Origin: a phage
Reading direction: 5' to 3' (one strand)
Sequence record: PV636258.1
DNA length: 64,000 nucleotides
Shown here: in pieces, positions 1,324 through 25,778 of the stretch
Position numbering within the stretch: position 1 is the stretch's first letter
Layout: the number at the start of each line of letters is the position of its first letter
Translations under genes and position numbers: made by a program
The notes under the pieces: model-generated
The model's input: only the letters and a program-made list of their open reading frames with translations
Told to the model about the DNA's origin: nothing
Databases searched by the model: none

Positions 1324-1325
1324 GA

Positions 1326-1967: not shown

Positions 1968-2028
1968 GACTTTACCCTCAATTTTGAAGGTATTTAGTCA
2001 ATCATTAATTCTTTTGAGGAATTGATAA

Positions 2029-2241: not shown

Positions 2242-2246
2242 AAAGA

Positions 2247-2272
2247 AAGGCGGGATAACCCGCCTTCTCTTA
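2247..2272. terminator. Bidirectional intrinsic terminator
   Basis: GGCGGG-ATAA-CCCGCC hairpin with A-run upstream and T-rich run downstream, between convergent genes. Confidence 0.6.
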
Positions 2273-3022
2273 TCCCATCATAAAATCGATAGGGTATTGC
2301 TGACCAGTACGCAATTCTTCCTCCAACCGCTCTATCTCGGTCTCAGCCTCACTGAACATACTATCACCATCCAGTTCGATACCACCAGGGAGACGGATGC
2401 CTCTTGCCTTCTTAAGCACCTCTGCCCAACGGCGCTTGACCAATGCAGTCGCATACGCTTTCAACCACATATCATTCCATGCTTCAGCGTTTTCTTCCGA
2501 TTCGGGGTCGATATTTTGATAACAACGAAAAGCCAGAGTTTCATCAACAATGGCAGCAAACTGCGGGTAAAGGCGTCGCTGGAACTTCTTGTACACAAAA
2601 TTACGGCGAACATTTAAGACGCTTGTGATATCCGACAGACGTTGTTGCATGGAAACATAATCAATGAGACGAATAGAAACCAGCGCTGCTTTGGGGACAA
2701 GCATTGCTTGAGCCATTTGCCATTGAGGAGTTGCCCAGTTTCCGATTGACTCAATAGGAGGTCCAGGGATAACTTCAATCACATCGTCAATATCATCGGG
2801 GAATTCTATATATCCCTTGTCGATATCTTCTTGTTTAACTTGGTACAGGAAGAACGCATCTTGGCTACCATCACGATGATATTCCCAAAATTTCTGCAGA
2901 GCATCATCGACTGCATCTTCGACTTGTGAACTGTCAAGGTTAATTTGGATCACGGGAGCGCCCAATTTACGCAAGACATAATTCATAAAAGATTTTTTGT
3001 CTCGAATCTTATTGACGGCCAT
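2270..3022 (-). CDS. Hypothetical protein in structural module
   Basis: ORF 2270-3079; start moved to internal ATG at 3022 (MAVNKIRDKK) which has AAGGGG SD 8 nt upstream and avoids a long overlap with the upstream gene. Confidence 0.55.
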   Translation of the reverse strand: MAVNKIRDKKSFMNYVLRKLGAPVIQINLDSSQVEDAVDDALQKFWEYHRDGSQDAFFLYQVKQEDIDKGYIEFPDDIDDVIEVIPGPPIESIGNWATPQWQMAQAMLVPKAALVSIRLIDYVSMQQRLSDITSVLNVRRNFVYKKFQRRLYPQFAAIVDETLAFRCYQNIDPESEENAEAWNDMWLKAYATALVKRRWAEVLKKARGIRLPGGIELDGDSMFSEAETEIERLEEELRTGQQYPIDFMMG

Positions 3023-3350
3023 TGTTATTCCCCTTTTGCTGCAAATCAGATACAGTAATCCGCAGTGTGCGAACATCATCTGAAAGACTGCTGCTATTGA
3101 GTTTTAACTCAGCCATGTTTTGTTTGACATATGCGAGGTCAGTATTCATGATCGCCATACGTTCACTCATGTCATTCACTTTCTGAAGAACTTGATCCAT
3201 CTTGTTGGAATCTCGTTCCAATACATTCACGCGCGTTTCCATCCCGCCCATGAACCAAAGGAACGATGCTGCCGAGACCAATGCAGAAGCCACGACAGCG
3301 GTTAAGATACCACGGATGTCAAGCCCCGTTCTTTCAGCTTGCGTCGCCAT
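3009..3350 (-). CDS. Membrane-anchored coiled-coil protein
   Basis: 113 aa; hydrophobic N-terminal segment (ILTAVVASALVSAASFLWF) followed by heptad-like, charged C-terminal region. Confidence 0.5.
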   Translation of the reverse strand: MATQAERTGLDIRGILTAVVASALVSAASFLWFMGGMETRVNVLERDSNKMDQVLQKVNDMSERMAIMNTDLAYVKQNMAELKLNSSSLSDDVRTLRITVSDLQQKGNNNGRQ

Positions 3351-3621
3351 TCTGACCTCCTTCGGGGATTTCGATCCCCAATTTTTCGGCCATCATTTTG
3401 ATTGTCGCCTCCAGATTAGATATCTGGTTTGATTGTTCAACAATGGTGGCTTCACGGGTTTCATTGCGTTGACGGGCTTGCAATGCAGCCATGCCAGCGG
3501 CGTGATCGGTGCAAATAATCGCGCCAGGGCAAGAACTGCTTCTCAACATGGATGCGTGCCCCTGTACTTTCACTCCACGCATATCTTTATCCTCTATTGG
3601 TTTGGTGGGCTTTACGCCCAC
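3334..3621 (-). CDS. Hypothetical small protein
   Basis: 95-aa ORF overlapping the next gene by 17 nt; start uncertain. Confidence 0.4.
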   Translation of the reverse strand: MGVKPTKPIEDKDMRGVKVQGHASMLRSSSCPGAIICTDHAAGMAALQARQRNETREATIVEQSNQISNLEATIKMMAEKLGIEIPEGGQNGDAS

Positions 3622-3634
3622 CTTTCAACATTAT

Positions 3635-6600: not shown

Positions 6601-8473
6601 CGCCATCTAGGACGAAGCTGGAGGTCACGTCTGCGCCAGTATCGTTTTTGACCGACACCAATTTCCAACCATCGTGATTCGCCAAAGGGCGGCTAGTCTG
6701 CGAGGTGAATGTCACTGTTTCAGTTGTTTCAGTGATGGTCTTCGTTTTGATTGTGGCCGTGGTACGAATCATCAGCGCCAGCAAATTGATTGACTGGTTA
6801 GCATTACCACTGCCCAGAGAAATCTGCAGCGCCGAACCGACCGGAGAACCAGTCAAAGACAAAGAACCAGAGATATCGAACTGCGCTTCAGAACCATCAG
6901 ATTTCGCTGCAGAGTATAACGAAAATTCTGGGGAAAAACTATATCCCAATGGAGCAGAAATAGAACCCGCGCCGCTGTTGTCCAACGTCACTTTATACGT
7001 TCTCAGAACAGTGTAGTTGATATCCACGGAGCCAGTTGGTGCTAAAGTCTTGACACCGAATACCGGAAGAGAGAAGATCAGATCTATCATAGAACTCTGG
7101 TTAAACTGATTGGATTCCAGTTCAGCAGAGAACATGGTGATACCGCTTTCTTCGTAAGACACTTTGGTGATAGTGGATGCATCGCCAGTAACGACCAGGT
7201 CGCGCATGTACAGGCGGAATTCAGTTGAACTGCGTTCGGCGGATATACACAACGCCGTGGCTTGAGCAACACCGGATGCGTTCAGTAATTTGTATCGAAC
7301 GGTGCGGGATATCACTGGCACACCTTTAGAATTCTTAGTGACCAGATAATTGCCTGTGGCCACCGCAACAGGGGTGTTGTTCAGGACATCGGTATCCCGC
7401 GCCTTATCAACGATGACCAACTCTTCCCCGACGTTTTCGATACGTCGACCGCGAACATAGGATATGCCTGGTTTCATCACAGAAACAAATTTGCTCTCGT
7501 CACCGCCATCAGCGGCATTGAATACCCCGCCATTGTTATTGACTTTCAGGTGTTCACGAATATCGATCTGATGGGTTGAAACGTTGTAATCGCCATTGGT
7601 TTCATAAGTCCGTTGGGCTAACGTGTCTTCCAGAATATTATAGGTGGACTGAGTCACCATAGACTGGATTTTACCATCACGAACTTTGGCCAGTTCAACA
7701 AAGTCTTCAACCACAGCATCATAATCAAATCGAGATAAGACCAGATCTATTCGAAGACGATGAGCGCCTGGGGCTTTGGAGTTAATCGTTCCCTGAGCAT
7801 TTGAATAAAGGGATTCATCTTCTGTTTCGGTGACAATAGTTTCGGTGACTTTAAATCCGATGCGGTGGGAAGTGATGTTAGAAGTTTTATCAACGATAAG
7901 AGTTGCGTCATCAACGTCTAGGAACATCCCACGAATGAAGTAAACGCCTTTCGTCATACGAGCGACGATAGAACCAGTCACCGCAGCTGCGATACCATAA
8001 CCAATACGAATGAAATTATCATTCACATCGTAAGTCTGGAAATACAGATTATCGTTAACATGGAATCCGTCAGCATTACCCGCTTCAGTCATCTCAAGGA
8101 TAGCCAGCATCGTATCAGGAGCAGACAGATCACGTTCAAGAGACAACACACGCGCTTTGGCATTATTGTCCTTCCCCAAAACGTAGAGTTCAGAAATACC
8201 TTCCAGATCAGTGAATTCAGTACCACCAGCCAAAGTGAATTTCAAAGAGACTGCGGCATTGGTAATCGTCAGACCGCCAGGGATAACCATAGAACCATCT
8301 TTGAACAAATGGTTGCCCAGTTTTTCAATTTGATCCTGAAGAATAGTCTGCATCTGGTTCAGTTCGCGAGTCTGAACCTTGATAGGCATCGGACGAAAAA
8401 GAATCCGTGAAAAACGTTTCCCAGGATTCCAGTCATCCCAATACGGGCGACGGTTTAAATTTGTAGATTGCAT
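3635..8473 (-). CDS. Very large virion structural protein (1612 aa), putative baseplate or fibre component
   Basis: Uninterrupted 4.8-kb ORF; ATG with GGAG SD 9 nt upstream; position adjacent to the tailspike genes; Thr/Ser/Gly-rich beta-type sequence. Confidence 0.7.
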   Translation of the reverse strand: MQSTNLNRRPYWDDWNPGKRFSRILFRPMPIKVQTRELNQMQTILQDQIEKLGNHLFKDGSMVIPGGLTITNAAVSLKFTLAGGTEFTDLEGISELYVLGKDNNAKARVLSLERDLSAPDTMLAILEMTEAGNADGFHVNDNLYFQTYDVNDNFIRIGYGIAAAVTGSIVARMTKGVYFIRGMFLDVDDATLIVDKTSNITSHRIGFKVTETIVTETEDESLYSNAQGTINSKAPGAHRLRIDLVLSRFDYDAVVEDFVELAKVRDGKIQSMVTQSTYNILEDTLAQRTYETNGDYNVSTHQIDIREHLKVNNNGGVFNAADGGDESKFVSVMKPGISYVRGRRIENVGEELVIVDKARDTDVLNNTPVAVATGNYLVTKNSKGVPVISRTVRYKLLNASGVAQATALCISAERSSTEFRLYMRDLVVTGDASTITKVSYEESGITMFSAELESNQFNQSSMIDLIFSLPVFGVKTLAPTGSVDINYTVLRTYKVTLDNSGAGSISAPLGYSFSPEFSLYSAAKSDGSEAQFDISGSLSLTGSPVGSALQISLGSGNANQSINLLALMIRTTATIKTKTITETTETVTFTSQTSRPLANHDGWKLVSVKNDTGADVTSSFVLDGGQRDAGYYKSNLLSSAGAISGTYTVVYQYFAHSSGDFFSADSYTSMDYKDIPNYTSSTSGAVYGLADSLDFRPKITNGTSDTDMVRPNTAVILDTEYYLPRIDAIYLADNGVFGVARGISSNNLASPAIPANAMRLYELLIPPYTPNIDDIQIRTIDNRRYTMRDIGKLETRISNVEYYTSLSQLESSAMTQQVFDPITGNPRFKNGIAADPFKDFRLIDDLSEDWMGSIDTENGRLRPFVQQNVVDMTPVGWNKVMDGMVVCNYTPEISVNQEYATTTINVNPYAVFNWEGFLKINPTTDYWFENYYVAPRIINETINTRGTVQEGSVYGTWRTVSVSDRVWEPHGAGGVWWGYRYRTTVSARDVTTYTYTDKTTTTMTGEQIVETQVIPYMREIDISFDASGLRPFTRMYAFFSGRDVNLYCKPNGGNFGDPITTDANGAVKGVFRVPQNDTIKFNTGDNVFRLTDSPVDSKSADDTLTNAEIVHKSFGKKQGIQKTFVNTRVLGYTASTRTETSTSEVVVDQWRDPIAQSFMVATKNGGEYIEGVEVFFSTKSRDVPITLEIREMENGLPSHTVITRKTLNPSEVTISTDSSGGTKFTFDYPVYLQASTEFAIVLLANTQDYNAYIAEMGKKNLLSNEYIAKQPYTGVFFTSSNGSTWSPNQMADMKFRIYRCNFAAGQNVVTFDPKLGPKQRPLGLNTLNCVSGSSVVTVFAPGHGLVAGNNVTLSELTGGCGFTPEQLNKTFTVTDASYTSFKIDVGTAADSNGQIGGDNASFLGNYLVDMFYASVTNSALEGSILKLEYRYRDATSNSMSDWAEFETDTDVALPTEGIYRQVGDFQIRATMTRSENNVYTAPMIDGDDLSVIFNSYGVDPFEDVFKYVTKDIGFDNPCSTVKLFFGAMLPSQSSMKVQVKLLRAGQEMDSVAWEDVTPTSPLVNDGSTFFEYEYDKTVASNNPFVGLKVRALVRGNRVAPPSFKDFRLIALA

Positions 8474-8545
8474 TTTGATGCTCCATCGAGTGCCATTTAT
8501 AGAGATATTTAGTATACAGCCAACAAACAGGATAGAAATAAAACC

Positions 8546-8566
8546 CCCCGCCGAAGCGGGGTTTTT
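8546..8566. terminator. Intrinsic terminator after tailspike gene (hairpin CCCCGC-CGAA-GCGGGG)
   Basis: GC hairpin flanked by A-run and T-run; same hairpin recurs at 12830-12845 and 15067-15082. Confidence 0.6.
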
Positions 8567-8579
8567 ATTCTTAATGATT

Positions 8580-10511
8580 TTATAATATCATCAAATCCTC
8601 AACCCATGTTCCTGGGCTACCTCCAATCTGACATACCCAACCCTTCAGCAGACAATCAGCCAGCTTTCCAAGCGCGGTAATGTTACGCGATACCACTGTT
8701 GGATTTTTTTTAGCGATATAAGAGCCTGTTGACCAGGTTATATTCCCGTAGTATGCAGGCTCTGTTTGCGGGTTGACATCGCCAACACCCACGTCGCGAC
8801 CAAGTGCAGAAATAGTTCGTTCTATTTCGCCATATTGTAAACTATAGCGTACATGGGTTGGCCCGTTCGCTGCATTAAGAAATACTTTCCCGGCCCCGCA
8901 CATACCAGACAGTGATATCAGTTGCTGATTGCCTGGATAGACGCTGTAAAGGTTGCCATCCGTGAAATTCGCTTGCACCAGGGATGTCCCGTTTTGTGTG
9001 ATCGCGGGTAGGTTATAAGCAAAGTACGACGCCGACGCTTTTTGATCTGCAGTCAGATACGCGGTATTGCCTGTCACGACGAGCGAATTTGATTTATCAC
9101 CCGATGCACCTATATCCAGGTACTGGCCCGTCATAAGCTCAAGTGTATTGTCTGCAAAAGTAAATCCTGACACGCCACCGATTATTACTACACCGTTTTG
9201 AGAACCCTCAATGCAGCATTCAGTGACTGACGAATATGTTACGCATTGCCCAGTAGCTGTTGCTCGTGCGAAATCCCAACCGCGTTCAAACACAACCTTT
9301 GACAATCTGACATCAAACCACTGCCCCGCATCAAGCGCATAGCCTTGAGGAGAGCGGATTATCTTTGTGCCAGTAAGGTATAAAGTTTGCAACCAATTGT
9401 TTGATTTAGCTACTAACAGTCCATTTACAGTGCCCCCATTGAACAGAACACGAATCAACTTCTGACCGTTAATAATGTATGTAACTTTTGATGTATCCTT
9501 CTGCGAAAAGTTAGTGCCTACAAACTCAATATTACCAGAAGCATTATCGGCTTCAGTTGATGAGAATACATATTGTTGACCATTTGCTACTATCTCACCA
9601 CCGATAAATGACACAAATTTTTCAGGTACAGAAGTATCAAGGTTGTTTACATTTACTGTTCCATCAATGCGGATAGTGCCATTGATGTAAACTGGTGGTC
9701 GTATTTTACCTGACACCATCCCATCGACACATCTTTGCATAGCTTCTGTATTGTCGAAGTCTCCGTATCTACCACCTGACAAATAAGCAAAATCGTTATG
9801 TGGATTTATACGCTTCCACCTTTTCCCATTGGTGGTCACAATCACCAATGTACCGTCATCCGCAGATGTTGTGTCGTTAGGGTCATAATAAAAAGCACCA
9901 GCACCAGATTTACCAGCATCACTATCATTATAGCGATTAACCATTATCTGCTGGTTTGGTGTCGATGGCTCAATCGACCTAAGCCCTTCTACGCTTGAGT
10001 ACCCTATGTATTTGAAGCCGTCTTCTTTTGAAAGTTCACTACGTAGAGAAACATCTCCAACACTAACCCACGCACCTAAACCAACACCACCCGTTGTTGC
10101 TGGGGTTGAACCAGGAGCAACGGTTTTAGGGAATGCACCATTCCAACGATATAGACTCACCCCATCGCTCACGACTTCGTTCTTGACACGAATCGTAAAT
10201 CCAGAAGTAAAATTTTCAACAAGAGTAACATACTCTTCCCTTAACACAGCCAATGCACCCAAATCTACGGTGCCTCCAGAGTGCGTGAGGATGCCGTCGA
10301 CCAAACTGGTGACCGTTACAGCACCAATGTTAGAAGGGAGAGCGTAGGCACGTTGAGACAACTTATCGTAGATCACTTTATAACCAGACAATGACTGTCC
10401 CGCTTTGGCATAAACGACTTCCGACTTTTTACACCCAAATTTACGGGCAATACTATCTTTGTTCGATTCTTTTGAAGTAGAACCTTTTGGTTGAGCAAAT
10501 TGCGGATTCAT
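8580..10511 (-). CDS. Tailspike-like protein (643 aa), beta-helix receptor-binding type
   Basis: N-terminal about 130 aa (ARKFGCKKSEVVYAKAGQSLSGYKVIYDK...GGVGLGAWVSVGD) shared with ORFs 12859-14985 and 15089-18592; C-terminal Gly/Asn/Thr-rich repeats typical of right-handed beta-helix. Confidence 0.65.
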   Translation of the reverse strand: MNPQFAQPKGSTSKESNKDSIARKFGCKKSEVVYAKAGQSLSGYKVIYDKLSQRAYALPSNIGAVTVTSLVDGILTHSGGTVDLGALAVLREEYVTLVENFTSGFTIRVKNEVVSDGVSLYRWNGAFPKTVAPGSTPATTGGVGLGAWVSVGDVSLRSELSKEDGFKYIGYSSVEGLRSIEPSTPNQQIMVNRYNDSDAGKSGAGAFYYDPNDTTSADDGTLVIVTTNGKRWKRINPHNDFAYLSGGRYGDFDNTEAMQRCVDGMVSGKIRPPVYINGTIRIDGTVNVNNLDTSVPEKFVSFIGGEIVANGQQYVFSSTEADNASGNIEFVGTNFSQKDTSKVTYIINGQKLIRVLFNGGTVNGLLVAKSNNWLQTLYLTGTKIIRSPQGYALDAGQWFDVRLSKVVFERGWDFARATATGQCVTYSSVTECCIEGSQNGVVIIGGVSGFTFADNTLELMTGQYLDIGASGDKSNSLVVTGNTAYLTADQKASASYFAYNLPAITQNGTSLVQANFTDGNLYSVYPGNQQLISLSGMCGAGKVFLNAANGPTHVRYSLQYGEIERTISALGRDVGVGDVNPQTEPAYYGNITWSTGSYIAKKNPTVVSRNITALGKLADCLLKGWVCQIGGSPGTWVEDLMIL

Positions 10512-10571
10512 AATGAGAATCTCCTGTTTTTCTAATAAACCCTCTCCTGAGAGAGGGAGAGGGGTAAATTA

Positions 10572-12761
10572 TTAATAAACTAAACCATCTGCAGACATAC
10601 CAACACAATACCAATGAGAAAAGTTAGCATCCCACACAAAGGACAATCCTTTTTGTTTACCAGATTCTGGAGGAACAAATCCCCCAATACGGAAACTGTC
10701 TCCCCAATTTACAGTAAGTGGTTGCCCTGATGTATTATAGATAATCATGTCCATACGCATCCCGTCTCTGGCATTATCTAAAGTATTGATGGTTATTGTG
10801 GAAGATGTCGCGTTAATAGTTGCTAAACTACATTTCATGGGATCTATGGTTACTGTCCCTGTCCCATCATGTTGAACTCTTTTGTTAACAGGGTTAGTCG
10901 AACCTGTATAAGTCGCGTTGCTTATGTTATACAAAGAATCCCAGTCATTTGTTTTATCATCATCTAAAATAGTGGCCGACGCGCCTAATAGCATAGTTCC
11001 TTCTATTTTATTCCCCTTTGTACCTCCATAAAAATGGAATCCAGAAGAAGAACCACCAATCCAACGGTTAAATTCAGCGCCTTGTATTTGCGACGATGGA
11101 GAACTATAACCCGCCATAACCCCCAAAAATAAGTTACTTGTCGCGGTTTTACGCAACAACACATCGCCATCAGAGTTAACTTCCATGTCCATTCCAATAA
11201 CCGTATTTGTAACCGCAGTTTGCGCCAAATCAGATTCATGTCCAAAAGCGATACCGAAACGACAACCTTCAGAAGTACCATTCATAAATATAGTATTGAT
11301 ACAGAATGTTGCTTCGATACCTGCTTCTGTCGTATGTTCACAAACAGGATTAATAAACGTATCGGCAGAAGTACCTCTTTTACTCGGAGATCCTTCTTCA
11401 TAATCGATTAATATTCCATATTTTGGTGTAGTGGTAAACAATTCCACATTCTTACTACAATGAAAATTATTATACAAATTACATTGAGTCCACCAACAAT
11501 GAAGCCCCGCACGAGAAATATTTGTGGCGCGTAAATTATCAAATCTAGAAGAAATTACTCCTCGAAGTGAAAACCCGTCTTTAGCAAATCCCTTTCCATC
11601 TACAATAATATTGCTCATATATGCTTCGTAGCCCCAATACATCAGGTCTGTATCACGAAAATCAAATTGTATAACATAATCATGATCACCACCAGTTAAT
11701 TCAATACGAGCGCCCTTCTCTCCTATTAAAGTCACAGGTTTGGTAAAATTCAATGGTAAACTGGTAAGATAAATCCCTTTAGGAAAGTATATGACCAATC
11801 CTGATAAAGCCCCTGCAACTGCTAATTGTAATCCGGCGGTATCATCGGTAACACCATCTCCTTTGCAACCATAATCCTTAACACTTATCGGATTATCTTC
11901 TAATTTAGAAGTAACAGAACGTACCAATGCACCAACTGCCGAATTCTTAAAATTAACCAAATTTGTACCCGTTGGACTACCTAATTCTGCTCTCAGTAAT
12001 GCAGCACTATTAGGCAATGGCAACAAATTAACCTGAACATCTCCTGGGTTGTAATTCAATTTCCCACCAGATACAGAAGAAATGACAGAACCATCAGGAA
12101 TGGTTGGTAAACCATAACTGGTTTGCGTCGCTATGTCATAAACAACTTTCTTCCCATCCAACAAAGATATGGTGTCCGTACTAACGATGACTTCAGAGTC
12201 TTTAACATTAGCAGAACGGGCAATTTCTTGAATACTGCGGTCAAACAACGGACTGATATTCGGTTGTTTAACAGACATTTCAGCGACTACCCAAACGCCT
12301 GCAGTCAGTGCAGTTTGCAAAGACACTTTCCCTGTCGTGCTGTTATAGGAATATTCAATTTCTGGTGTTTTGTACTCGCCACCGATATAAAGAGATTGGA
12401 CACCATAGGATGTGAAATCAGGAGTGAACTCGGTTTCACCTCCTACGGCCTGAAATTTGTATATGCGGATACCTTTGGCTGTATCTTCTGGCGAAAGAAT
12501 TTTATCGAATAAGCAATACACAACATCGCCTTTGGACAATGCGCGCCCGAGATTCAACATATTTCCTTCGATTTCAAAGTTGTCTAACGGAACTTGCATA
12601 CCACCGTTGATTGTGATAACACCAGTGACGGGATGGAACGGCAAAGAAAGGAAAGTTTCTCCACCGACATTTGATTTATACGTGAAAGGAATCTGGTGGG
12701 GAGCTGTGATTACGCCGCCGAATAATTCTTCTACATTTCTAGTCATTTGAAAATACCCCAT
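10572..12761 (-). CDS. Tailspike-like protein (729 aa)
   Basis: Partial copy of the shared anchor module (residues about 180-270), beta-helix-like C-terminal region; part of the four-gene tandem array. Confidence 0.6.
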   Translation of the reverse strand: MGYFQMTRNVEELFGGVITAPHQIPFTYKSNVGGETFLSLPFHPVTGVITINGGMQVPLDNFEIEGNMLNLGRALSKGDVVYCLFDKILSPEDTAKGIRIYKFQAVGGETEFTPDFTSYGVQSLYIGGEYKTPEIEYSYNSTTGKVSLQTALTAGVWVVAEMSVKQPNISPLFDRSIQEIARSANVKDSEVIVSTDTISLLDGKKVVYDIATQTSYGLPTIPDGSVISSVSGGKLNYNPGDVQVNLLPLPNSAALLRAELGSPTGTNLVNFKNSAVGALVRSVTSKLEDNPISVKDYGCKGDGVTDDTAGLQLAVAGALSGLVIYFPKGIYLTSLPLNFTKPVTLIGEKGARIELTGGDHDYVIQFDFRDTDLMYWGYEAYMSNIIVDGKGFAKDGFSLRGVISSRFDNLRATNISRAGLHCWWTQCNLYNNFHCSKNVELFTTTPKYGILIDYEEGSPSKRGTSADTFINPVCEHTTEAGIEATFCINTIFMNGTSEGCRFGIAFGHESDLAQTAVTNTVIGMDMEVNSDGDVLLRKTATSNLFLGVMAGYSSPSSQIQGAEFNRWIGGSSSGFHFYGGTKGNKIEGTMLLGASATILDDDKTNDWDSLYNISNATYTGSTNPVNKRVQHDGTGTVTIDPMKCSLATINATSSTITINTLDNARDGMRMDMIIYNTSGQPLTVNWGDSFRIGGFVPPESGKQKGLSFVWDANFSHWYCVGMSADGLVY

Positions 12762-12767
12762 AAAGGA

Positions 12768-12805
12768 TTTGCCAATATGGGGTATTTAGTCTGAACTAAT
12801 AAAAT
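12768..12805 (-). promoter_or_regulatory. Conserved hairpin directly upstream of tailspike start codon, 3-prime arm contains the GGGG ribosome-binding site
   Basis: ATACCCCATA / TATGGGGTAT 10-bp inverted repeat; nearly identical cassettes at 14992-15028 and 18598-18637. Confidence 0.5.
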
Positions 12806-12829
12806 TTATGAACAAAGGTATAATAAGAA

Positions 12830-12845
12830 CCCCGCCAAAGCGGGG
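12830..12845. terminator. Intrinsic terminator (CCCCGC-CAAA-GCGGGG)
   Basis: Same GC hairpin as at 8546 and 15067, T-rich on the minus strand downstream of gene 12859-14985. Confidence 0.55.
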
Positions 12846-12858
12846 CATAAGTTACTTA

Positions 12859-14985
12859 TTACACAGATAACTTCATACGTGTTTTACTTCCATCAGGGAG
12901 TCGTATCAAAGCCCACAGTGCACCCGCATCTAAGTACAAGGACATTGTATTAATATCCAACACACCTTCATCCGGTAATACTGTACCAGAAATAGGTAGC
13001 TCAGTTGTCTTATAATCTCCTCGGTTAACCTTGAGAGATACAGCATTAGGGGTTGAACCAGAGAGTGCAGTTAACTCAGTCCATGCTGAACCAGAACCAG
13101 CAGAACCGTTCAGATGGGAACGTAAAGCACCACTATCCAGAGTAGCTGACAGCTTGTTAATACGTAGAGCCAACTCAGCAGTATCACTATTGAACCCGAT
13201 GACTCTAGACTGACCTAATACTGGGTCAAGTAAGTTACCAACAAGAATTTTATCTGGAGGAACATTACCGACCAACCCACTTATTGTGGAGTTTGGTGCA
13301 CTGATAACCAGACCATTTGATGGTTGTGGTTTAATCCCTGCAGCCCTAATCCCATTAACAATACAATCACCTATAATGATAATTTGGTCAGAATCAAAAT
13401 TAAGGTAGTTACAATCAATAACTGTAATGTTAGAAAATACACGGTTGTAAGTATGTGCAAGCATACCTGCACCAGCACAATCCTGTACGGTAACGTTAGA
13501 AACATACCCACCACGACCATCCATACCTAAACCAACACCAAGTGAGTTCATAACAAGAATATTATCAACCAAATGGTTATTAGGCAGTTGGTGGAATGGA
13601 TATTCAGATACAGGTAAATCCCCAGGTCTATCCGGTTCTGGTGCCATACCTGGGTCAGAACCCAAGTCAAAACCATTCCAAACAGGAGACAATGCAACAG
13701 AATCCCTGAACTGTAGATTATAGTTACGTGCAGTACCACCACCAACGGAACCCTGATAAGTCTTGAAACCAGACTCACCAGCTCGCCATGATGTAACACC
13801 AATAACTCCACCATTGTGGGATTCACCACCATTATTTCTCAGGAACTGAACACCACTACCAGAACCATAATGAACACGTCCACCAATAACATAATTACCT
13901 AATCCCCAATCACCACTAAGGTTCTCAAAGGTAATGATTCCATCTTTACCACCAATGATGCTATCTGAATCAATTACCTTGCAGTGATGACAACTACGGA
14001 AAAGGTAAGCAGCCATAAGACCACCAGCATTTCTTATTTCTACTCGGCTGGCACTGCGAATATCTAGAGTGGCTGTAATATGTTGGTCTTTAACGTTCTG
14101 TGGGAGTAATGCCTCTAATCCAGGGAATTTAACCCAGTCATTTACCCCAGGTTGATAGCCTTCAATCTTTGATTGCTTCAGCGTTGCAGCAACAAGGGCA
14201 GCATCTGTAATCCATTTACCATCAGCATCCCACGGGAAAATGACCCATGGAGTAGTCTTGCTCTCCATGAATGGTTGATTAATTACCGAGCCTGGCCCCA
14301 TATTATTAAAGATTAAAGCCCCATCTCCAATAAACTTAGCCTTACAGTTAATGGTTAAAATCTTACCACCAAAATCTACAGACTCACCATCTGTGAAGTT
14401 GTAATTGATATCAATAAGCAATCCATCTACGGCTGCTGTCGCTGCATCCTGTAATGTAGAATAATCAGATAACTTTACTGAATATTTGAATTTTTTGTTG
14501 GCTTCCTGTCTAAATGCTGCGTCACCAACACTCAACCATGCACCTAAACCAACACCACCTGAACTATCTGGAGTAGAACCAGCGGCAACTACCTTTGGCA
14601 AAGAACCATCCCATCGATATTTTTTATCATCGTGAACAAGAAGTTCATTTTTCACATTAATGGTATGGCCGAAATTAAAAGAACCAGGTAAAGTCACATA
14701 TTCTTCGCGGCTTACTGCTAATTCCCCAAGGTCAACAGAGCCAGCGGAATGAGTGAGGATAGCTCTTTCATCCAGACTAATTGCAGTTGTCCCTGAAACA
14801 ATACCGAAAGGGAGAGAATAAGCCCGTTGGGTAGACTCATCATAAATTACTTTAAATCCACTGAGATCAATACCAGCAGTGAAATAAATGACTTCGTCTT
14901 CTTTGACACCGAAATTTCGAGCGATAGATTGTTTGTTAACTTCTATGGAAGTGGAGCCGCGTGGTTGATTGAATTGAGAAATCAT
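12859..14985 (-). CDS. Tailspike-like protein (708 aa)
   Basis: Shares N-terminal anchor module (ARNFGVKEDEVIYFTAGIDLSGFKVIYDE...GGVGLGAWLSVGD); C-terminal beta-helix-like repeats. Confidence 0.65.
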   Translation of the reverse strand: MISQFNQPRGSTSIEVNKQSIARNFGVKEDEVIYFTAGIDLSGFKVIYDESTQRAYSLPFGIVSGTTAISLDERAILTHSAGSVDLGELAVSREEYVTLPGSFNFGHTINVKNELLVHDDKKYRWDGSLPKVVAAGSTPDSSGGVGLGAWLSVGDAAFRQEANKKFKYSVKLSDYSTLQDAATAAVDGLLIDINYNFTDGESVDFGGKILTINCKAKFIGDGALIFNNMGPGSVINQPFMESKTTPWVIFPWDADGKWITDAALVAATLKQSKIEGYQPGVNDWVKFPGLEALLPQNVKDQHITATLDIRSASRVEIRNAGGLMAAYLFRSCHHCKVIDSDSIIGGKDGIITFENLSGDWGLGNYVIGGRVHYGSGSGVQFLRNNGGESHNGGVIGVTSWRAGESGFKTYQGSVGGGTARNYNLQFRDSVALSPVWNGFDLGSDPGMAPEPDRPGDLPVSEYPFHQLPNNHLVDNILVMNSLGVGLGMDGRGGYVSNVTVQDCAGAGMLAHTYNRVFSNITVIDCNYLNFDSDQIIIIGDCIVNGIRAAGIKPQPSNGLVISAPNSTISGLVGNVPPDKILVGNLLDPVLGQSRVIGFNSDTAELALRINKLSATLDSGALRSHLNGSAGSGSAWTELTALSGSTPNAVSLKVNRGDYKTTELPISGTVLPDEGVLDINTMSLYLDAGALWALIRLPDGSKTRMKLSV

Positions 14986-15066
14986 GATAATACCCCATAA
15001 AGGATGACCAATATGGGGTATTTAGTCTGAATTAACAAAATTTTATAAACATGGATATAATAAGAA

Positions 15067-15082
15067 CCCCGCCGAAGCGGGG
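15067..15082. terminator. Intrinsic terminator (CCCCGC-CGAA-GCGGGG)
   Basis: GC hairpin followed by TTTTT. Confidence 0.55.
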
Positions 15083-15088
15083 TTTTTA

Positions 15089-18000
15089 CTATGATGTAAA
15101 TTTCATTGCATCCCATGTTGTACCATTATGTCGATACCCGAAAATATTTGATGCCCCAGCAATAACATCATATCTGTCACCAGACGCATTACCAAAAGGC
15201 CTGTCAGGAACAGAAGTTGTGTCAGTTGCTAAAATGCCTTTAAACCACCATCCATTCTGGGTGTTTGGTTTGTATTTGTAAAATTGTTTAACATATGGTT
15301 GAGTTGGCGAGTCAACATTAATTTGCCCATGAATACCAGCGTATCCGTATAAAGGTTCACTGGTATTCACATCACTGTATACATCAATGTTGAAGTAGTA
15401 ATCCTGTACGGATAGTGGAGCTATCCCAAGCGCTGGATGCATCCATCTATCTGTTTTAATATCAGCAGTGAATTGCACAACACCAACAGTCACTCCTGCT
15501 GCTTGTTGTAATAAACCCAGGACACCACCAAACTGACAATTTGTCATATTCCATTTAATATGCATTTCAGCAAGGTGAACAAGATAATCGTTGGCAAATT
15601 TATTGGTAAACCTTATGGCTGTGTTGTCTGATAATTGAGGTGAACCGTTGGTCCCGCAAGAGACAAAAGAGTCATTGCTGTTGAAAGTAGCACCTGTTTT
15701 TTGTTTACCCAAGCGAACACACCCCCAAAAACCTGAGAAAGTGTTATTTTCACTAACAACTTCTTTGAAATAGTCCAGGTCATAAGCAACGTTTGCAGCT
15801 TTTTGTTCAGTTGTCCAATCTGTGGCTCTGTTTTTTTGCAATATGTTATTATTTGCAGAGTAAATAATTGCATTAATAGTGGTTGGGTCAGATGACAAAA
15901 CAGACGGCTGCTGTGTTGTGAATGCCGCAGTATTAGGATACCCGATAACTTGCTTTTCTGATCGTAGCGTTACAGTATTACCAATAAATCTGGCAACAGT
16001 TGTAACGTTAGGTACGGTATCCAGAACCAAAGCACTACCTGCGTCCTCACAGACGTTATTTGTGAAGGTGACTATAGATGTCGATGTAGCACCGTCGTTA
16101 GCCTTCAGGAATGGGTAGCGAGCTTTTTTGGTGATGCATCCATCAACGATCCCATTACCATGACACTCAAATACCGTACACATGTCTGACATGGTTGGCT
16201 GGATACATTTAACGTTATTTATAACGTAGCCATCGGAATGAATTCTTATTGATGAGTGGTCTGTTAGGTTACTGTTTCCAGTCACAGCGTCAGCAACGCG
16301 ATAGAAGTTGCAATTCTCTACACGCGTATTGTAGCTGTTGAACGCTGCCTGAGCTTCCTGGAATACCATTACGTTTGCACCAGGAGCATTCTTGACGTTA
16401 ACACCAGAAACAACCACACCGTTACTACCTTCGTAACATGCTACTGCTGGACAGTGAGCTTGTGCTCCAGACCAGTTCAATGGCGGGACAAGGTTATTGT
16501 CACCATTTTCATCAATTAGCATATCGTGGACATATGCGTTCTGAATTTCACGAATACCATCACCGAAAACTACAAAGCCTTTAGTGCCCCCGTTTTCCTT
16601 ATTGCGCTCAACAACACCATCGGCAACATACAGTAACGTTGCGTCGCCATCGCCGATGAAAGTAACGTTGTTGCGAAGAAAAATCATAACTTCCTGATTA
16701 CGATAAATAGTCAGACCATGCGCCGTGCCTTCCACAAGAGTCGTTTTATCCAACAGATAAGTGCCAGCAGGAACCATGACAACTTGCTGGGATCCGAATA
16801 GTTCCGCACGTTTCTCCGCATGATAACCTGCGAGGTTTATAGCATCGACCGCGTCTGCACCGATCTTATCTGCGATAGAATAGTTGTTATCAGCACCCCA
16901 GTTTGTAACAGACTGCCAATCATAATCTGTTAAATATCCAACACAGTAAAAATCGGGATAGTCTGGAACAGTTCCCGGCGCTACTGTATAACCACCACTT
17001 TGTATAGCACCATATTTAACCCAGAAAAGACCACTTGAATCAACAAGAGCTTGCTCGTTGGTGGTTAAAACTGAACCTTGCAAGAAAGACCCAAACTTCT
17101 CGAATTTACTATTGATATAATTATTAGCTACCCATTGGCGGGATGTTTCATCACCAACACCCACCCACGATCCAATCCCAACACCCCCAGATGTTTCAGG
17201 TGTTGATCCAGCATCGACAGTTTTAGGAAGTGTGCCATCCCAGCGATACTTTCCATCAGTATGTGTAAGCAATTCATTTTTAGTATTGATGACAGCACCA
17301 GAATCAAATGTCCCAGACAATGTAACATATTCTTCACGAGATACAGCTAATGCGCCCAGATCAACACTACCAGCAGAATGCACAAGTATAGCCGAAGAAC
17401 TAAGGCTGACTGCCGTGGTTCCAGTCGGTAGCTCTGGAATAAAATATGATCTCTGTGTTACTTTATCATAGATAACTTTATACCCGCTTAACACAGCACC
17501 AACACTAAAATAAACGACCTCTGTATCTTTAACATTGGTTACACGAGCCACTTCCCGCAAAGTATAATCAATTTGATTATAGATGTTTGGCGTTCCATTG
17601 ATAATTACAACAACTTCATCCTCTGCATCCAGTTCTTGCGCAAGGGTGATTTTACTGGTTAATGGATCGAATGTGAACCCCAGATTTTTATACTGGCGAC
17701 TTCCGTTTATATCAATGGCCGGAACATCATCAACAACGACGTCCAACGTGATTTCGGTTTCACCGCCAATCGCTGAACCCCCATTATAGACCCAGGTAAT
17801 CGTAGAAGAACCAGAACCACCGCCATTACCCAATTGAATAGGAGTATATTCAATCACCTGAAGTTCTGTGCTGGCTGGCAAAGAAGGACTGAAAGTGATT
17901 AAATTCCCATCTAGTGAATATTTGGATTCCGCAAGACGTTTTCCGTCAGCATACACGTCCACGATTGTTGGTGGAGTATTGAGAGTGACAGCACTTGTTT

Positions 18001-18592
18001 CAGACGCCAAAATTTGTGTAAAGATTTCACGACTGTAGACACGGCCTTGGCCAAGACCGACGCCGGATGTGATAACCCAACCTTGTTCAGGTCCAGACCA
18101 AGTGAACGTTGCTGATACGTTATCAGTTGTTATAGCCATGTCTTCAGTGGTGCCATACAAATTATTTCCAGAAGGAGACACGGTCAATGGGTAAGTGGCA
18201 AATTTCCCATAAGCATCACAAATAGTAACGGAATCCCCAATACGCGTAGGGGAAGGGAGAACCACTGTAGATGTCCCTGTTGTATTATTAATGAGATAGC
18301 CACGACCTTCTAACAAATTGCTAGAGGGAGCGTAAGGGAGCGTTTCCCAGCGTATTCCACCGCCCCCCAAAGACAACCAACCACCGTTTTCGTAATAACC
18401 TTCAAATTCATCACTATCAGGATTGTAACGCACAGAAGATGGAAGACCTGTAACTTCAGTATCTTCAGGAAATGTCATTACGGCACCAGGGGAATGCTCA
18501 ATAGTGCCGGAGTTGTTGAAGCCTTTTATGTTCGAAGACTCAGAAGTTTCTAAACCCAAAGGGAAAAGAGGCTGTGTTGGTTTGTTGGCCAT
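15089..18592 (-). CDS. Tailspike-like protein (1167 aa) with extra N-terminal domain
   Basis: Shared anchor module is internal (about residues 340-470: ARVTNVKDTEVVYFSVGAVLSGYKVIYDK...GGVGIGSWVGVGD) preceded by about 340 extra residues; C-terminal beta-helix-like region. Confidence 0.65.
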   Translation of the reverse strand: MANKPTQPLFPLGLETSESSNIKGFNNSGTIEHSPGAVMTFPEDTEVTGLPSSVRYNPDSDEFEGYYENGGWLSLGGGGIRWETLPYAPSSNLLEGRGYLINNTTGTSTVVLPSPTRIGDSVTICDAYGKFATYPLTVSPSGNNLYGTTEDMAITTDNVSATFTWSGPEQGWVITSGVGLGQGRVYSREIFTQILASETSAVTLNTPPTIVDVYADGKRLAESKYSLDGNLITFSPSLPASTELQVIEYTPIQLGNGGGSGSSTITWVYNGGSAIGGETEITLDVVVDDVPAIDINGSRQYKNLGFTFDPLTSKITLAQELDAEDEVVVIINGTPNIYNQIDYTLREVARVTNVKDTEVVYFSVGAVLSGYKVIYDKVTQRSYFIPELPTGTTAVSLSSSAILVHSAGSVDLGALAVSREEYVTLSGTFDSGAVINTKNELLTHTDGKYRWDGTLPKTVDAGSTPETSGGVGIGSWVGVGDETSRQWVANNYINSKFEKFGSFLQGSVLTTNEQALVDSSGLFWVKYGAIQSGGYTVAPGTVPDYPDFYCVGYLTDYDWQSVTNWGADNNYSIADKIGADAVDAINLAGYHAEKRAELFGSQQVVMVPAGTYLLDKTTLVEGTAHGLTIYRNQEVMIFLRNNVTFIGDGDATLLYVADGVVERNKENGGTKGFVVFGDGIREIQNAYVHDMLIDENGDNNLVPPLNWSGAQAHCPAVACYEGSNGVVVSGVNVKNAPGANVMVFQEAQAAFNSYNTRVENCNFYRVADAVTGNSNLTDHSSIRIHSDGYVINNVKCIQPTMSDMCTVFECHGNGIVDGCITKKARYPFLKANDGATSTSIVTFTNNVCEDAGSALVLDTVPNVTTVARFIGNTVTLRSEKQVIGYPNTAAFTTQQPSVLSSDPTTINAIIYSANNNILQKNRATDWTTEQKAANVAYDLDYFKEVVSENNTFSGFWGCVRLGKQKTGATFNSNDSFVSCGTNGSPQLSDNTAIRFTNKFANDYLVHLAEMHIKWNMTNCQFGGVLGLLQQAAGVTVGVVQFTADIKTDRWMHPALGIAPLSVQDYYFNIDVYSDVNTSEPLYGYAGIHGQINVDSPTQPYVKQFYKYKPNTQNGWWFKGILATDTTSVPDRPFGNASGDRYDVIAGASNIFGYRHNGTTWDAMKFTS

Positions 18593-18638
18593 TTGTAATA
18601 CCCCTAAATGTATTCATGTCATCTAGGGGTATTTAGTT

Positions 18639-19829
18639 TTAGAAAGAAGCTGCAATAGAATAGTCGACAGAACAAGCAGTTGTCGTATTTGCATTAACAA
18701 CGGAAATTCTCAATTTACCACCCACCACAGCCCCTGTGAACGTCACTGTACCGCTCGTACTTTTCTGAACCAACAACTCTGTTTTGATCGTTCCGTCACG
18801 AGTTATGGTTACTCGATATGTGTCAACAACGTTACCCGTCCCCCATTGCGCAGTTACCAGTATTTGACAAAGGTTCACCAAATCAAAATCTGGAAGAGCC
18901 GTCGTTCCAGAAGCCGAAACCGTATATGACGACAAGTTTGTTTTTGTGCGATAAACTGCGTTCCCTAAACTGTTATCAATTGTGGTCATTTTGGCATTAT
19001 ACGTTGATACATCGACCTTACCAGTCGTGAGAGAACTGATACTGCCGTCCAAGGAAGTCATCTTCGTATTATATGTGCTGACCTCGACTTTATTACCCAG
19101 AGACGTGTTGATATTGGAGATACTCAAATCCAACGACGCCATCTTAGTGTTGTAAGTCGAGGTGTTGACTTTCCCGTTCAACGACGTGTTGATGTTATTA
19201 ATTTGAGACTCTAAACTCAGCATATCTGCATCATACGCTGTCGTTGTCACATATCCATTAAATCGGTTATCTGCAAACAACGCATCAAAAAATGCAGTCA
19301 TTGCCCAATAACGCGCTCCAGAATCTGTTTGTACTGGAACTGAAGTCGGCAACGTTGGTCCGGTATACGCAGACAATCTGGTAAAATCCAAATTGAATTT
19401 GTAATATCCGGATGTCAACAACTCCCCAGCCAAACCAGAACCAGGCGGGGTAGTGTCTTCACTGACGCCATGCTTTCTCAACATGCTCAGGTTAACACCA
19501 TCTGTCGAGTTCGTTGGTTCATCTGTGATTGAAACGGATTTTCCGGCGGGAACTTGTATGCCCCCATTGGTCACCAACAACGCATTGAAAGTCTTTTTGC
19601 CATTGATTGTTTGTTCACCACTATCTGTCCGAATAACTTTGTTGGCCAAAGTATCATTGATTGTGTCAACAGATCTTTTCAACTCGTATGTCAGGCGAGC
19701 AGATGGCGGAAACAATGGGTCGTTAACTTCAAAATCGTTAATAACGTCATTTTTACTTACTTTGTCATCAACAGAACCCAATATCTGATCTATCTGCTGA
19801 CCTGTATATTGACTCAGGAAATCGGCCAT
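18639..19829 (-). CDS. Tail fibre-like protein with tandem short repeats
   Basis: 396 aa; repeated units of the form NINTSLNGKV-TSTYNTKM-SLD-SIS in the middle of the protein. Confidence 0.55.
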   Translation of the reverse strand: MADFLSQYTGQQIDQILGSVDDKVSKNDVINDFEVNDPLFPPSARLTYELKRSVDTINDTLANKVIRTDSGEQTINGKKTFNALLVTNGGIQVPAGKSVSITDEPTNSTDGVNLSMLRKHGVSEDTTPPGSGLAGELLTSGYYKFNLDFTRLSAYTGPTLPTSVPVQTDSGARYWAMTAFFDALFADNRFNGYVTTTAYDADMLSLESQINNINTSLNGKVNTSTYNTKMASLDLSISNINTSLGNKVEVSTYNTKMTSLDGSISSLTTGKVDVSTYNAKMTTIDNSLGNAVYRTKTNLSSYTVSASGTTALPDFDLVNLCQILVTAQWGTGNVVDTYRVTITRDGTIKTELLVQKSTSGTVTFTGAVVGGKLRISVVNANTTTACSVDYSIAASF

Positions 19830-25741: not shown

Positions 25742-25778
25742 CTAAATAAACCAGTTGTTCAATAAACAATTGGTGAGT

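Follow-up and report, generated by a model that had tools for sequence, protein, structure and literature searches.

A Kuttervirus-type tailspike cluster with asparagine at a catalytic aspartate position of its P22-fold spike

The tailspike cluster and its closest relatives

The region at positions 8580-18592 of the window, the 64,000-nucleotide stretch of phage record PV636258.1 analysed here, is very probably the tsp4-tsp3-tsp2-tsp1 host-recognition cluster of a Kuttervirus (Ackermannviridae) of the PM10/Chennai species, with four tailspikes that would assemble as in phage CBA120. The third of these spikes has the fold of the P22 tailspike endorhamnosidase and an asparagine at a position where that enzyme has a catalytic aspartate.

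The initial annotation had reported four tandem ORFs of 643, 729, 708 and 1167 aa, and the ORF list places them, consecutively and on the minus strand, exactly at the reported coordinates; all coordinates of tsp genes and tailspike domains given below are on the minus strand. The tsp1 gene (8580..10511, 643 aa) encodes a D1-D2 head and a PhiSH19-type orphan body and is matched by PHROG 38183 over its full length. The tsp2 gene (10572..12761, 729 aa) encodes XD2-XD3, TD1 only and a pectate-lyase-like beta-helix body, and tsp3 (12859..14985, 708 aa) a D1-D2 head with a Det7/P22-type endorhamnosidase body of subtype TSP3-2. The product of tsp4 (15089..18592, 1167 aa), the hub of the tailspike complex, is matched by PHROG 23412, also over its full length. 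Spacers between the four ORFs measure 60-103 nt, and a search for tandem repeats in the cluster region found none. The vriC gene (DUF4815) lies at 3635-8473, followed by tsp1-4, and three baseplate-region genes lie upstream of the cluster, which is the placement found in CBA120; the annotation likewise puts the cluster between vriC and baseplate wedge genes.

The four-tailspike architecture is already known. This is a textbook Kuttervirus tsp cluster, and both PM10 and Chennai, which have the same TSP subtypes as this phage, have been typed in print and are named in published subtype tables (PMC8432352, Table 3; the supplement of that paper does not give subtypes per phage). The cluster is 99.6% identical to that of PM10 (KX438380) and, after rounding, 100% identical to that of Chennai (MN953776), with one mismatch. 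This mismatch, in tsp3 codon 437, is the sole nucleotide difference from Chennai between positions 8759 and 18630. The window as a whole corresponds to neither of these two records, and it is not Chennai with one altered base, a reading that was rejected at an identity of about 99.3% over the 64 kb (approximately 350 differences plus indels). Nearly all of these differences lie downstream of 18.6 kb, and between 18.6 and 43 kb no record comes closer than 98.7%.

The shared head module

A module shared by the four proteins had been proposed from the sequence, and BLASTP places it far above chance. The TSP1 and TSP3 heads are 58% identical over residues 1-168 (E 3e-54), those of TSP3 and TSP4 60% identical (residues 8-160 against 335-486, E 3e-52) and those of TSP1 and TSP4 55% identical (residues 21-157 against 348-485, E 2e-39). 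The 729-aa TSP2 has the module in part, as had been supposed, namely its first half (33-46% identity over 54-94 residues, E 2e-7), and it separately matches TSP4 residues 274-439 (33%, E 2e-17). The module is folded and not a low-complexity artefact: Pfam Tail_spike_N matches TSP1, TSP3 and TSP4 (residues 90-153, 90-155 and 416-481; E 1e-21 to 7e-29), and the CBA120 TSP1, TSP3 and TSP4 head crystal structures are matched with E values of 1e-53 to 1e-100. The TD1-TD2 (D1-D2) head is present in TSP1, TSP3 and TSP4; Pfam gave no Tail_spike_N (TD2) match in TSP2.

The role of anchor given to this module had to be abandoned, since the module is the D1-D2 head and anchoring and branching would reside in extra N-terminal residues. 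The approximately 340 extra residues of TSP4 hold the predicted baseplate anchor (AD) followed by the branching domains XD1, XD2 and XD3, and the approximately 170 extra residues of TSP2 hold XD2-XD3. Only the heads of TSP1 and TSP3 would dock on another spike, on the XD3 domains of TSP4 and TSP2, respectively (PMC8825819, PMC11721090).

The four C-terminal bodies are unrelated, as had been claimed, with no mutual similarity among them. The C-terminal edge of the module (GGVGxGAWxSVGD), with the GTTAVSL motif, is the point at which bodies are exchanged between phages and slots, as shown by phage pSK20, whose slot 1 holds the Det7-type body found here in TSP3. The shared module was also considered as a substrate for recombination within the genome and was rejected, the copies being only 65-68% identical in DNA or not detectably similar.

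Assembly of the branched complex

A branched multi-tailspike arrangement of the ViI/CBA120 type had been suggested, and the domain matches together with published work support it (PMC8432352, PMC8825819). Residues 1-338 of TSP4 match CBA120 TSP4-N (7REJ) with E 5e-220 and about four differences, in the order AD-XD1-XD2-XD3. In this alignment the AD, which by homology would anchor the complex, comprises residues 1-79 and ends in a GGGG linker (18356..18592; limits from PMC8825819), and the T4 gp10-like XD1, XD2 and XD3 comprise residues 80-338 (17579..18355). The internal D1-D2 head of TSP4 follows at residues 344-486, with GTTAVSL at 391 (17135..17563; Tail_spike_N E 1.5e-21, 5W6H E 7e-78). 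TSP2 residues 6-270 (11952..12746) contain XD2, XD3 and then only the TD1 half of the module, as seen in the match of the TSP2 N-terminus to 6W4Q residues 1-265 (E 2e-154; PMC7506556, PMC8825819). The TSP3 head, residues 1-155 (14521..14985), matches 6NW9/5W6F over residues 1-167 (E 1e-100), and the TSP1 head matches 4OJ5 (E 1e-53).

The assembly rules of the branched complex have been described (PMC8825819, PMC8432352, PMC11721090), and the XD2/XD3 contacts of CBA120 were measured by analytical ultracentrifugation (PMC8825819). Because the interacting domains are 96-99% identical to those of CBA120, the same contacts may be expected here. The XD2 of TSP4 would bind the XD2 of TSP2, the TSP1 head would dock on the XD3 of TSP4 and the TSP3 head on the XD3 of TSP2, giving a four-armed branched complex in which each C-terminal beta-helix body would bind one surface polysaccharide. 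The D1-D2 head would serve as the docking end in TSP1 and TSP3, whereas in TSP4 it would lie within the chain as a spacer that separates the body from the XD domains; TSP2 retains D1 alone.

The CBA120 tailspikes TSP1-TSP4 (Plattner et al., 2019; Chao et al., 2022; 4OJ5, 6W4Q, 6NW9, 5W6H, 7REJ) have the same gene order and flanking genes, a TSP4 AD-XD1-XD2-XD3 region about 99% identical, a TSP2 N-terminus about 97% identical and homologous D1-D2 heads, and the bodies of both phages are C-terminal receptor-binding beta-helices. However, the CBA120 bodies (O21, O157, O77 and O78) are all unlike the four of this phage, and identity between the two TSP1 heads is only about 59%. By comparison with the literature, the XD2/XD3 beta-jellyroll trimers of the T4 gp10 and G7C gp66/gp63.1 adapters likewise dock trimeric fibres or spikes, although with other partners and another branch number.

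TSP3 and the Asn437 substitution

TSP3 has the full-length fold of the P22 tailspike, with a Pfam PhageP22-tail match over residues 161-706 (E 3.9e-303) besides Tail_spike_N (E 7e-29). Its body is about 98% identical to that of the Det7 gp207 tailspike over 558 residues, with 11 differences (2V5I, 1249 bits), and about 61% identical to that of the P22 tailspike endorhamnosidase, whose structures are also matched. Two members of the catalytic triad Glu359/Asp392/Asp395 (P22 numbering) are kept, Glu359 and Asp395 as Glu404 and Asp440, and the catalytic Asp392 is replaced by Asn437. Codon 437 of tsp3 (13675..13677) reads AAT, in contrast to the GAT (Asp) of Chennai, PM10, Det7 and SPTD1. TSP3 belongs to the P22 tailspike fold family; its full enzymatic membership is doubtful, and with Asn at the Asp392 position so is the earlier idea of four depolymerase activities.

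The companion claim that specificities cannot be read from sequence proved wrong for two of the four spikes, TSP3 being of Det7 type and TSP2 close to the TSP2 of phage SPTD1. The TSP3-2 subtype (Det7 type) corresponds to Salmonella O:4, and also to O:9 according to data on EP75 and SPTD1 (PMC8432352, PMC9965104). TSP3 is the sole Salmonella-specific spike among the four. Rha-Gal cleavage in the O:4/O:9 O-antigen was shown for the Det7, EP75 and SPTD1 proteins, all of which have Asp437, and TSP3 would be expected to bind the Salmonella O:4/O:9 O-antigen as these identical or near-identical proteins do. The P22 D392N tailspike binds O-antigen without degrading it (PMC12048535, PMC2989905). By extension from this P22 body, about 61% identical, the Asn437 form of TSP3 would bind O-antigen yet cleave it very poorly, and as a Salmonella reagent the Asp-to-Asn change would make the spike a binder and not a depolymerase. 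It is also possible that TSP3 keeps some activity, or that a phage with a contractile tail depends less on cleavage.

The same Asn codon is found in the independently sequenced pSK20, the only one among 127 phage records to share Asn437, where both the haplotype and the slot (slot 1) are different. This argues against an artefact of sequencing or assembly, or a polymorphism without effect, with TSP3 a normal O-antigen-cleaving endorhamnosidase; such an explanation appears unlikely, even though Asn437 is a single G-to-A change and its exact protein was absent from a 15-billion-protein collection. The nine IMG/VR contigs that matched also favour that explanation, all having Asp and no Asn allele, as does the absence of the Asn-specific 29-mer from metagenome contigs; moreover, a working spike would be expected if the bacterium on which the phage was presumably grown was Salmonella. 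The abolition of visible O-antigen degradation by P22 D392N weighs on the other side, and so does the recurrence of catalytic-Asp substitutions in the family, with many independent origins. Literature searches found no paper pairing "D437N" with Det7 and none on pSK20.

Substitutions of a catalytic Asp (to Gly, Asn or Glu) occurred in 19 of 113 related siphovirus spikes. Counted over the two catalytic Asp residues, substitutions affect about 20 of 120 family representatives, and one of them was found on whole-phage contigs from at least three samples. All 19 substituted spikes came from bacterial-culture assemblies, against none of the 39 named phage isolates (Fisher p = 1.5e-4, exploratory). 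It is conceivable, though we consider it rather doubtful, that lost or strongly reduced O-antigen cleavage is a recurrently selected state of P22-type tailspikes and not a defect. Should this hold, spikes that do not cleave would point to a separate way of adsorbing or persisting, such as a carrier state or attachment that leaves the receptor intact, and a contractile-tailed phage could infect via a binding-only spike. No discussion of recurrent catalytic-Asp substitution in this tailspike family was found in the searchable literature, and its repeated independent occurrence merits a proper population analysis.

TSP2 and a Citrobacter receptor

The TSP2 body belongs to the pectate-lyase-like/RHGA-epimerase beta-helix class, with a Pfam PF12708 match at residues 292-402 (E 3e-14, 53.7 bits against a gathering cut-off of 27). 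It is 99.2% identical over 475 residues to the body of SPTD1 TSP2 (WBL99284.1). Chimeras with the SPTD1 TSP2 body spot on Citrobacter sedlakii instead of E. coli O157 (PMC9965104), and, going by this protein, TSP2 would recognise a C. sedlakii receptor.

The orphan bodies of TSP1 and TSP4

The TSP1 body (residues 156-643; 8583..10046) and the TSP4 body (residues 487-1167; 15092..17134) are orphan receptor-binding bodies, the former a putative beta-helix and the latter an S117-type right-handed beta-helix. They are 100% and 99.1% identical, respectively, to the bodies of PhiSH19 TSP1 and S117 TSP4, themselves orphans, and no published receptor or host was found for either type. Pfam, at E values up to 5, finds nothing in either body. 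Members of the TSP1-body family match Pfam Beta_helix and Pect-lyase, and the family profile matches 5W5P (E 1.9e-24) and 8OQ0 (E 9.8e-15); the AlphaFold2 model of the TSP1 body is unreliable (pLDDT 44). The TSP4-body family profile matched PDB entries in its head region only.

P22-like prophages of Citrobacter portucalensis and Citrobacter sp. encode tailspikes that share 77% (over the full length of the body) and 78% identity, respectively, with the TSP1 body. For the TSP4 body, the identity is 81% to a P22-like tailspike, and the sequence downstream of that tailspike matches the C. portucalensis locus of the TSP1 relative at 95%. A Citrobacter freundii prophage carries a frameshifted full-length TSP4-body homologue followed by an acyltransferase gene. 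No TSP4-body relative was detected in a scan of bacterial contigs with one genome per species. Because the closest relatives of both bodies are Citrobacter prophage tailspikes, we infer that TSP1 and TSP4 target O-antigens of the C. freundii complex, and Citrobacter may be the target of three spikes out of four in this "Salmonella" phage. Citrobacter has several O-antigens in common with Salmonella or E. coli serogroups. Kutterviruses have been found to plaque on C. freundii (PMC10892097). At 77-81% identity to their relatives, the specificity of the bodies may differ.

Recognition by TSP1 and TSP4 of untested Salmonella or E. coli serogroups or capsules, with the Citrobacter relatives reflecting a shared gene pool, is plausible without being probable. 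Body cassettes move freely among enterobacterial phages, a sequence divergence of 19-23% can alter specificity, the host panels in the literature are limited, and the TSP2 body, too, is 60% identical to an E. coli phage spike. Nevertheless, wherever a bacterial source is named for a close relative of either body, it is Citrobacter (C. portucalensis, C. freundii and Citrobacter sp.); a 5.8-billion-cluster database yielded no Salmonella or E. coli among the close relatives, though both genera are heavily sequenced, and the neighbouring TSP2 already targets Citrobacter, as judged from the SPTD1 protein (PMC9965104).

Both bodies are intact ORFs, the TSP1 body being identical in only 9 records and the TSP4 body 95-100% conserved in 38 Kuttervirus records, and both show purifying selection when compared with temperate-phage copies (dN/dS 0.11-0.12). 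The TSP4-type body was found on four phage chassis (myovirus, P22-like, HK022-like and phiKMV-like), a pattern expected only for a working receptor-binding cassette. By megablast against phages, the Logan contigs with TSP4-body relatives were phiKMV/ECBP5-like, with mixed hosts (L006), and only weakly HK022-like (L005), and neither result pointed to a particular host. The conservation, the selection and the range of chassis make it very unlikely that the two bodies are functionless passengers whose N-termini are kept for building the complex, leaving effectively two working spikes. This idea was raised by Gil et al. for the orphan TSP1 and TSP4 bodies of SPTD1, whose sequences differ from those found here (PMC9965104), and it draws on the infection of known hosts by S117 despite a replaced or truncated TSP4 body (PMC11414711) and on the lack of a known host for either body type. 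The Citrobacter assignment makes the receptors of S117-type TSP4, present in the 38 phage records, and of PhiSH19-type TSP1 directly testable in strains of the C. freundii complex.

Regulatory elements

A late-promoter-like motif, CTAAATACCCC, is located upstream of tsp4 on the minus strand (18626..18636), and the same motif lies upstream of tsp3 (15015-15025) and tsp2 (12779-12789). It occurs as CTAAATATCTC upstream of vriC (8502-8512), and none was found upstream of tsp1. Five matches were counted in the window against 0.08 expected, and equivalent sites are labelled "Kuttervirus late gene promoter" in the SPTD1 record; counts of sigma-70-like promoters in the region were not above chance. 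The tsp2 start is probably the sixth codon, an ATG at 12746 giving a protein of 724 aa, as in the PM10 annotation and in CBA120 TSP2; the upstream in-frame ATG falls within a leader hairpin conserved 5' of tsp4, tsp3 and tsp2. A GC-rich terminator-like hairpin follows tsp4 (15065..15084, minus strand), and similar hairpins, all consensus matches, follow tsp3 (12829-12846), tsp2 (10540-10563) and tsp1 (8546-8561).

Organization of the tailspike gene cluster

The four open reading frames proposed in the initial annotation at 8580-18592 were recovered at exactly these positions, all on the minus strand: tsp4 (1167 aa, 15089-18592), tsp3 (708 aa, 12859-14985), tsp2 (729 aa, 10572-12761) and tsp1 (643 aa, 8580-10511), transcribed in this order and separated by spacers of 60-103 nt. 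Three baseplate-region genes flank the cluster on one side and vriC on the other, the defining layout of the family (PMC11721090), and the locus had been rightly recognised as a real CBA120/ViI-type multi-tailspike cluster. Over the same coordinates it is 99.6% identical to Salmonella phage vB-SalM-PM10 and differs by one base, in codon 437 of TSP3, from Salmonella phage Chennai; both phages are classified in the Ackermannviridae, genus Kuttervirus, species Kuttervirus PM10. The architecture of the cluster has been described before, even for this phage species, and the finding owes its interest only to two by-products: a testable Citrobacter hypothesis for the two orphan spikes, TSP1 and TSP4, and, in TSP3 as the only Salmonella spike, a natural substitution at the catalytic site that is part of a recurrent family pattern.

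Identity to Chennai (MN953776) is mosaic, with two differences in window positions 1-18600 and about 350, plus indels, in 18600-64000. The idea that the window is an edited copy of Chennai was ruled out by these 350 differences and by the best record in the phage collection searched, which reaches at most 98.7% identity to the window over 18.6-43 kb.

Downstream of tsp1, vriC encodes a 1612-aa protein (DUF4815; 3635-8473, minus strand). Directly upstream of tsp4 lies a gene for a 396-aa protein (18639-19829, minus strand) with reiterated NTSLxxKVxxSTYNxKM-like segments, a weak BppL_N match (E 8e-4) and membership of PHROG 3838, which has no assigned function; a part in the baseplate or a fibre is possible. 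Elsewhere in the window, four tRNA genes (Met, Asn, Tyr, and Ser) are clustered on the plus strand at 25665-27359.

The shared head module and spike assembly

A module shared by proteins with otherwise different bodies had been noticed by eye, and BLASTP confirmed it, aligning TSP1 with TSP3 (58% identity, residues 1-168, E 3e-54), TSP3 with TSP4 (60%, residues 8-160 versus 335-486, E 3e-52), and TSP1 with TSP4 (55%, residues 21-157 versus 348-485, E 2e-39). The 729-aa TSP2 contains the first half of the module only (E 2e-7) and also aligns, independently, with TSP4 residues 274-439 (E 2e-17). No mutual similarity of the four proteins outside the module was found by BLASTP. Three of the four have a Pfam Tail_spike_N hit in the second half of the module (E 1e-21 to 7e-29), and over its whole length the module aligns with the crystal structures of the CBA120 TSP1, TSP3, and TSP4 heads. 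It is a folded domain pair, the D1-D2 (TD1-TD2) head, and not a low-complexity stretch; checks of the weak points named in the initial annotation turned up neither an artefactual module nor bodies lacking a beta-helix. Sequence comparison shows how the domains are arranged, which fold class each of the four bodies belongs to, and that the proteins are nearly identical to characterised ones.

The label of shared anchor fits this module only in part: TSP1 and TSP3 would dock through the head, whereas the true anchor and branching platforms would be the residues of TSP4 and TSP2 that had been regarded as extra. Residues 1-338 of TSP4 are almost identical to the CBA120 TSP4-N fragment 7REJ (E 5e-220), in which a baseplate anchor domain (AD) is accompanied by three T4 gp10-like domains, XD1, XD2, and XD3 (PMC8825819). 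TSP2 residues 6-270 match the full-length CBA120 TSP2 structure 6W4Q (E 2e-154), the match covering XD2, XD3, and a single TD1. In CBA120, TSP4 and TSP2 interact through their XD2 domains, the TSP1 head docks on TSP4 XD3, and TSP3 joins TSP2 XD3 once the TSP4:TSP2 complex exists (PMC8825819, PMC11721090). Given the near-identity of the domains, the phage studied here would be expected to follow the same assembly order and contacts.

Bodies with probable targets

With the crystallised Det7 tailspike (2V5I) the TSP3 body (residues 151-708) shares about 98% identity, and with the P22 tailspike about 61%. Sorensen et al. named PM10 and Chennai under subtype TSP3-2, Salmonella O:4, and data from EP75 and SPTD1 widen the range to O:9 (PMC11721090, PMC9965104). 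By analogy with these identical or 99% identical proteins, TSP3 probably binds Salmonella O:4/O:9.

The TSP2 body (residues 255-729) matches Pfam Pect-lyase_RHGA_epim (E 3e-14) and is 99.2% identical to that of SPTD1 TSP2. Gil et al. reported that PM10 and Chennai have the same TSP2 C-terminus as SPTD1 and, with CBA120/SPTD1 chimeras, that this C-terminus confers spotting on Citrobacter sedlakii (PMC9965104); TSP2 would thus be predicted to recognise C. sedlakii, as its 99% identical counterpart does. The same body (10575-11999) also shows 59.6% full-length identity to the tailspike of the E. coli siphophages Msk/OzMSK and 42-44% to spikes of phages hz69, GZMU_E2010, and JN03.

The orphan bodies of TSP1 and TSP4

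The TSP1 body (residues 156-643) is found in identical form only in PM10, Chennai, PhiSH19, three Kenyan ST313 phages, and Se_AO1. Its AlphaFold2 model is poor (pLDDT 44), and a family profile was built from 22 sequences gathered by an exhaustive HMMER search. Among solved structures, this profile matches tailspike depolymerases of Acinetobacter phages, 5W5P (E 1.9e-24) and 8OQ0 (E 9.8e-15), and family members match Pfam Beta_helix and Pect-lyase. In a database of 5.8 billion protein clusters, relatives of either orphan body were few, and none of them was a Salmonella or E. coli protein.

Over its full length, the TSP1 body shares 77-78% identity with proteins annotated 'phage tailspike protein' in Citrobacter portucalensis (GCA_021440745.1) and Citrobacter sp. 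Cpo074; the C. portucalensis gene is the last of a P22-like prophage beside torS, with gp7/gp20/gp16 ejection proteins, Arc, and a head-binding domain. For the TSP4 body, a P22-like tailspike encoded on an SRA-derived contig shows 81% identity, and the 156 bp 3' of its gene match that C. portucalensis locus at 95%; spikes on contigs of an HK022-like temperate siphovirus and a phiKMV/ECBP5-like podovirus show 61-62% identity to the body. A full-length, frameshifted TSP4-body homologue occurs in a C. freundii prophage adjoining thrS (GCA_020889125.1). Immediately 3' of the TSP4-type body, both in this prophage (L003 10001-13645) and on the HK022-like contig (L005 10001-13622), lies an Acyl_transf_3 gene. 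An acyltransferase gene beside a tailspike is the usual signature of O-antigen-modifying lysogenic conversion, and these genes possibly encode O-antigen acetylases with this role.

Between the Kuttervirus and the temperate-phage copies of the orphan bodies, dN/dS is 0.11-0.12, indicating that they are constrained, working cassettes and not relics. Kutterviruses have also been reported to plaque on C. freundii (PMC10892097). Taken with the distribution of the relatives and with TSP2, already a Citrobacter spike, these data make it about as likely as not that C. freundii-complex O-antigens are what TSP1 and TSP4 recognise. No statement of Citrobacter targets for these two bodies was found in the literature searched.

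A catalytic-site substitution in TSP3

The catalytic triad of P22-type tailspikes (PMC9965104), Glu359/Asp392/Asp395 in P22, aligns to Glu404/Asn437/Asp440 of TSP3. Codon 437 (13675-13677, minus strand) is AAT (Asn) here and GAT (Asp) in Chennai, PM10, Det7, and SPTD1. Among 127 phage records matching an 81-nt probe that spans this codon, AAT occurred in only one, Salmonella phage vB_SenAc-pSK20, whose haplotype differs slightly from that of the window and which carries a second O:4/O:9-type spike besides the Det7-type one. P22 D392N, the standard catalytic mutant, binds with wild-type affinity and does not degrade O-antigen (PMC12048535, PMC2989905), and cleavage is thought to position P22 at the cell surface (PMC7541932). 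From P22 mutagenesis, it appears somewhat probable that the TSP3 of this phage binds O-antigen but cleaves it poorly.

Similar changes recur among P22-type spikes. In the 120 best cluster representatives related to the TSP3 body (12862-14535), the catalytic Glu was invariant, the Asp392 equivalent was Asp in 103, Gly in 12, Asn in 2, Glu in 2, and Lys in 1, and the Asp395 equivalent was Asp in 117, Glu in 2, and Asn in 1. Catalytic-Asp substitutions (Gly, Asn, Glu or Lys) were thus present in about 20 of the 120, exploratory counts from non-independent cluster representatives that are not a population sample. For several variants among 113 Jerseyvirus-type spikes, a wild-type twin exists at a distance of 0-4 residues, while the closest sequence sharing the substitution lies at a distance of 26-48; the changes have therefore arisen independently many times. 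One Gly variant was present on whole-phage contigs of about 41 kb from at least three bacterial sequencing samples. All variants came from bacterial-assembly or SRA contigs; none of 19 was from a named phage isolate, and all 39 named isolates carried both Asp residues (Fisher p 1.5e-4, exploratory, with non-independent sequences). Such recurrence speaks for Asn437 as a genuine allele, one example of a repeated type of change, rather than noise.

Cassette exchange

In pSK20 (OR729889), the Det7-type body occupies not the TSP3 slot but slot 1, the TSP1 slot next to vriC (L013 9001-11130). Its head differs from that of the window TSP3, and the two proteins are identical from GGVG(L/I)GAWLSVGD onward, which marks the conserved C-terminal edge of the module as a cassette junction. 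This junction comes in addition to the GTTAVSL junction described by Sorensen et al. (residues 65 and 391), which reads GTTAISL in TSP3 and GTTAVSL in TSP4 of the window. Module copies within the genome share 65-68% DNA identity or have no detectable similarity, making recombination between them unlikely.

Promoters, leaders, and start codons

A late-promoter-like motif, CTAAATACCCC (CTAAATAcCcc), precedes tsp4, tsp3, tsp2, and vriC (8502-8512 for vriC, by motif match), with none before tsp1; the window holds five copies, where 0.08 would be expected, and equivalent sites in the SPTD1 record are annotated as Kuttervirus late promoters. Motif matching and folding placed motif and leader hairpin together, on the minus strand, at 18598-18636 (tsp4), 14990-15025 (tsp3), and 12753-12789 (tsp2). 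In these strong, conserved hairpins (-16.6 to -17.8 kcal/mol, z -4.0 to -5.6) the CCCC of the motif pairs with a GGGG just 5' of the start codon. In place of motif and hairpin, tsp1 has an AGGAG ribosome-binding site. Each of the four tsp genes is followed by a GC-rich hairpin resembling a terminator. The first ATG of the 729-aa tsp2 frame sits within the leader hairpin (12746-12761), and the position of this upstream in-frame ATG supports a start giving 724 aa; the CBA120 and PM10 homologues start at the corresponding site, five codons later (724 aa).
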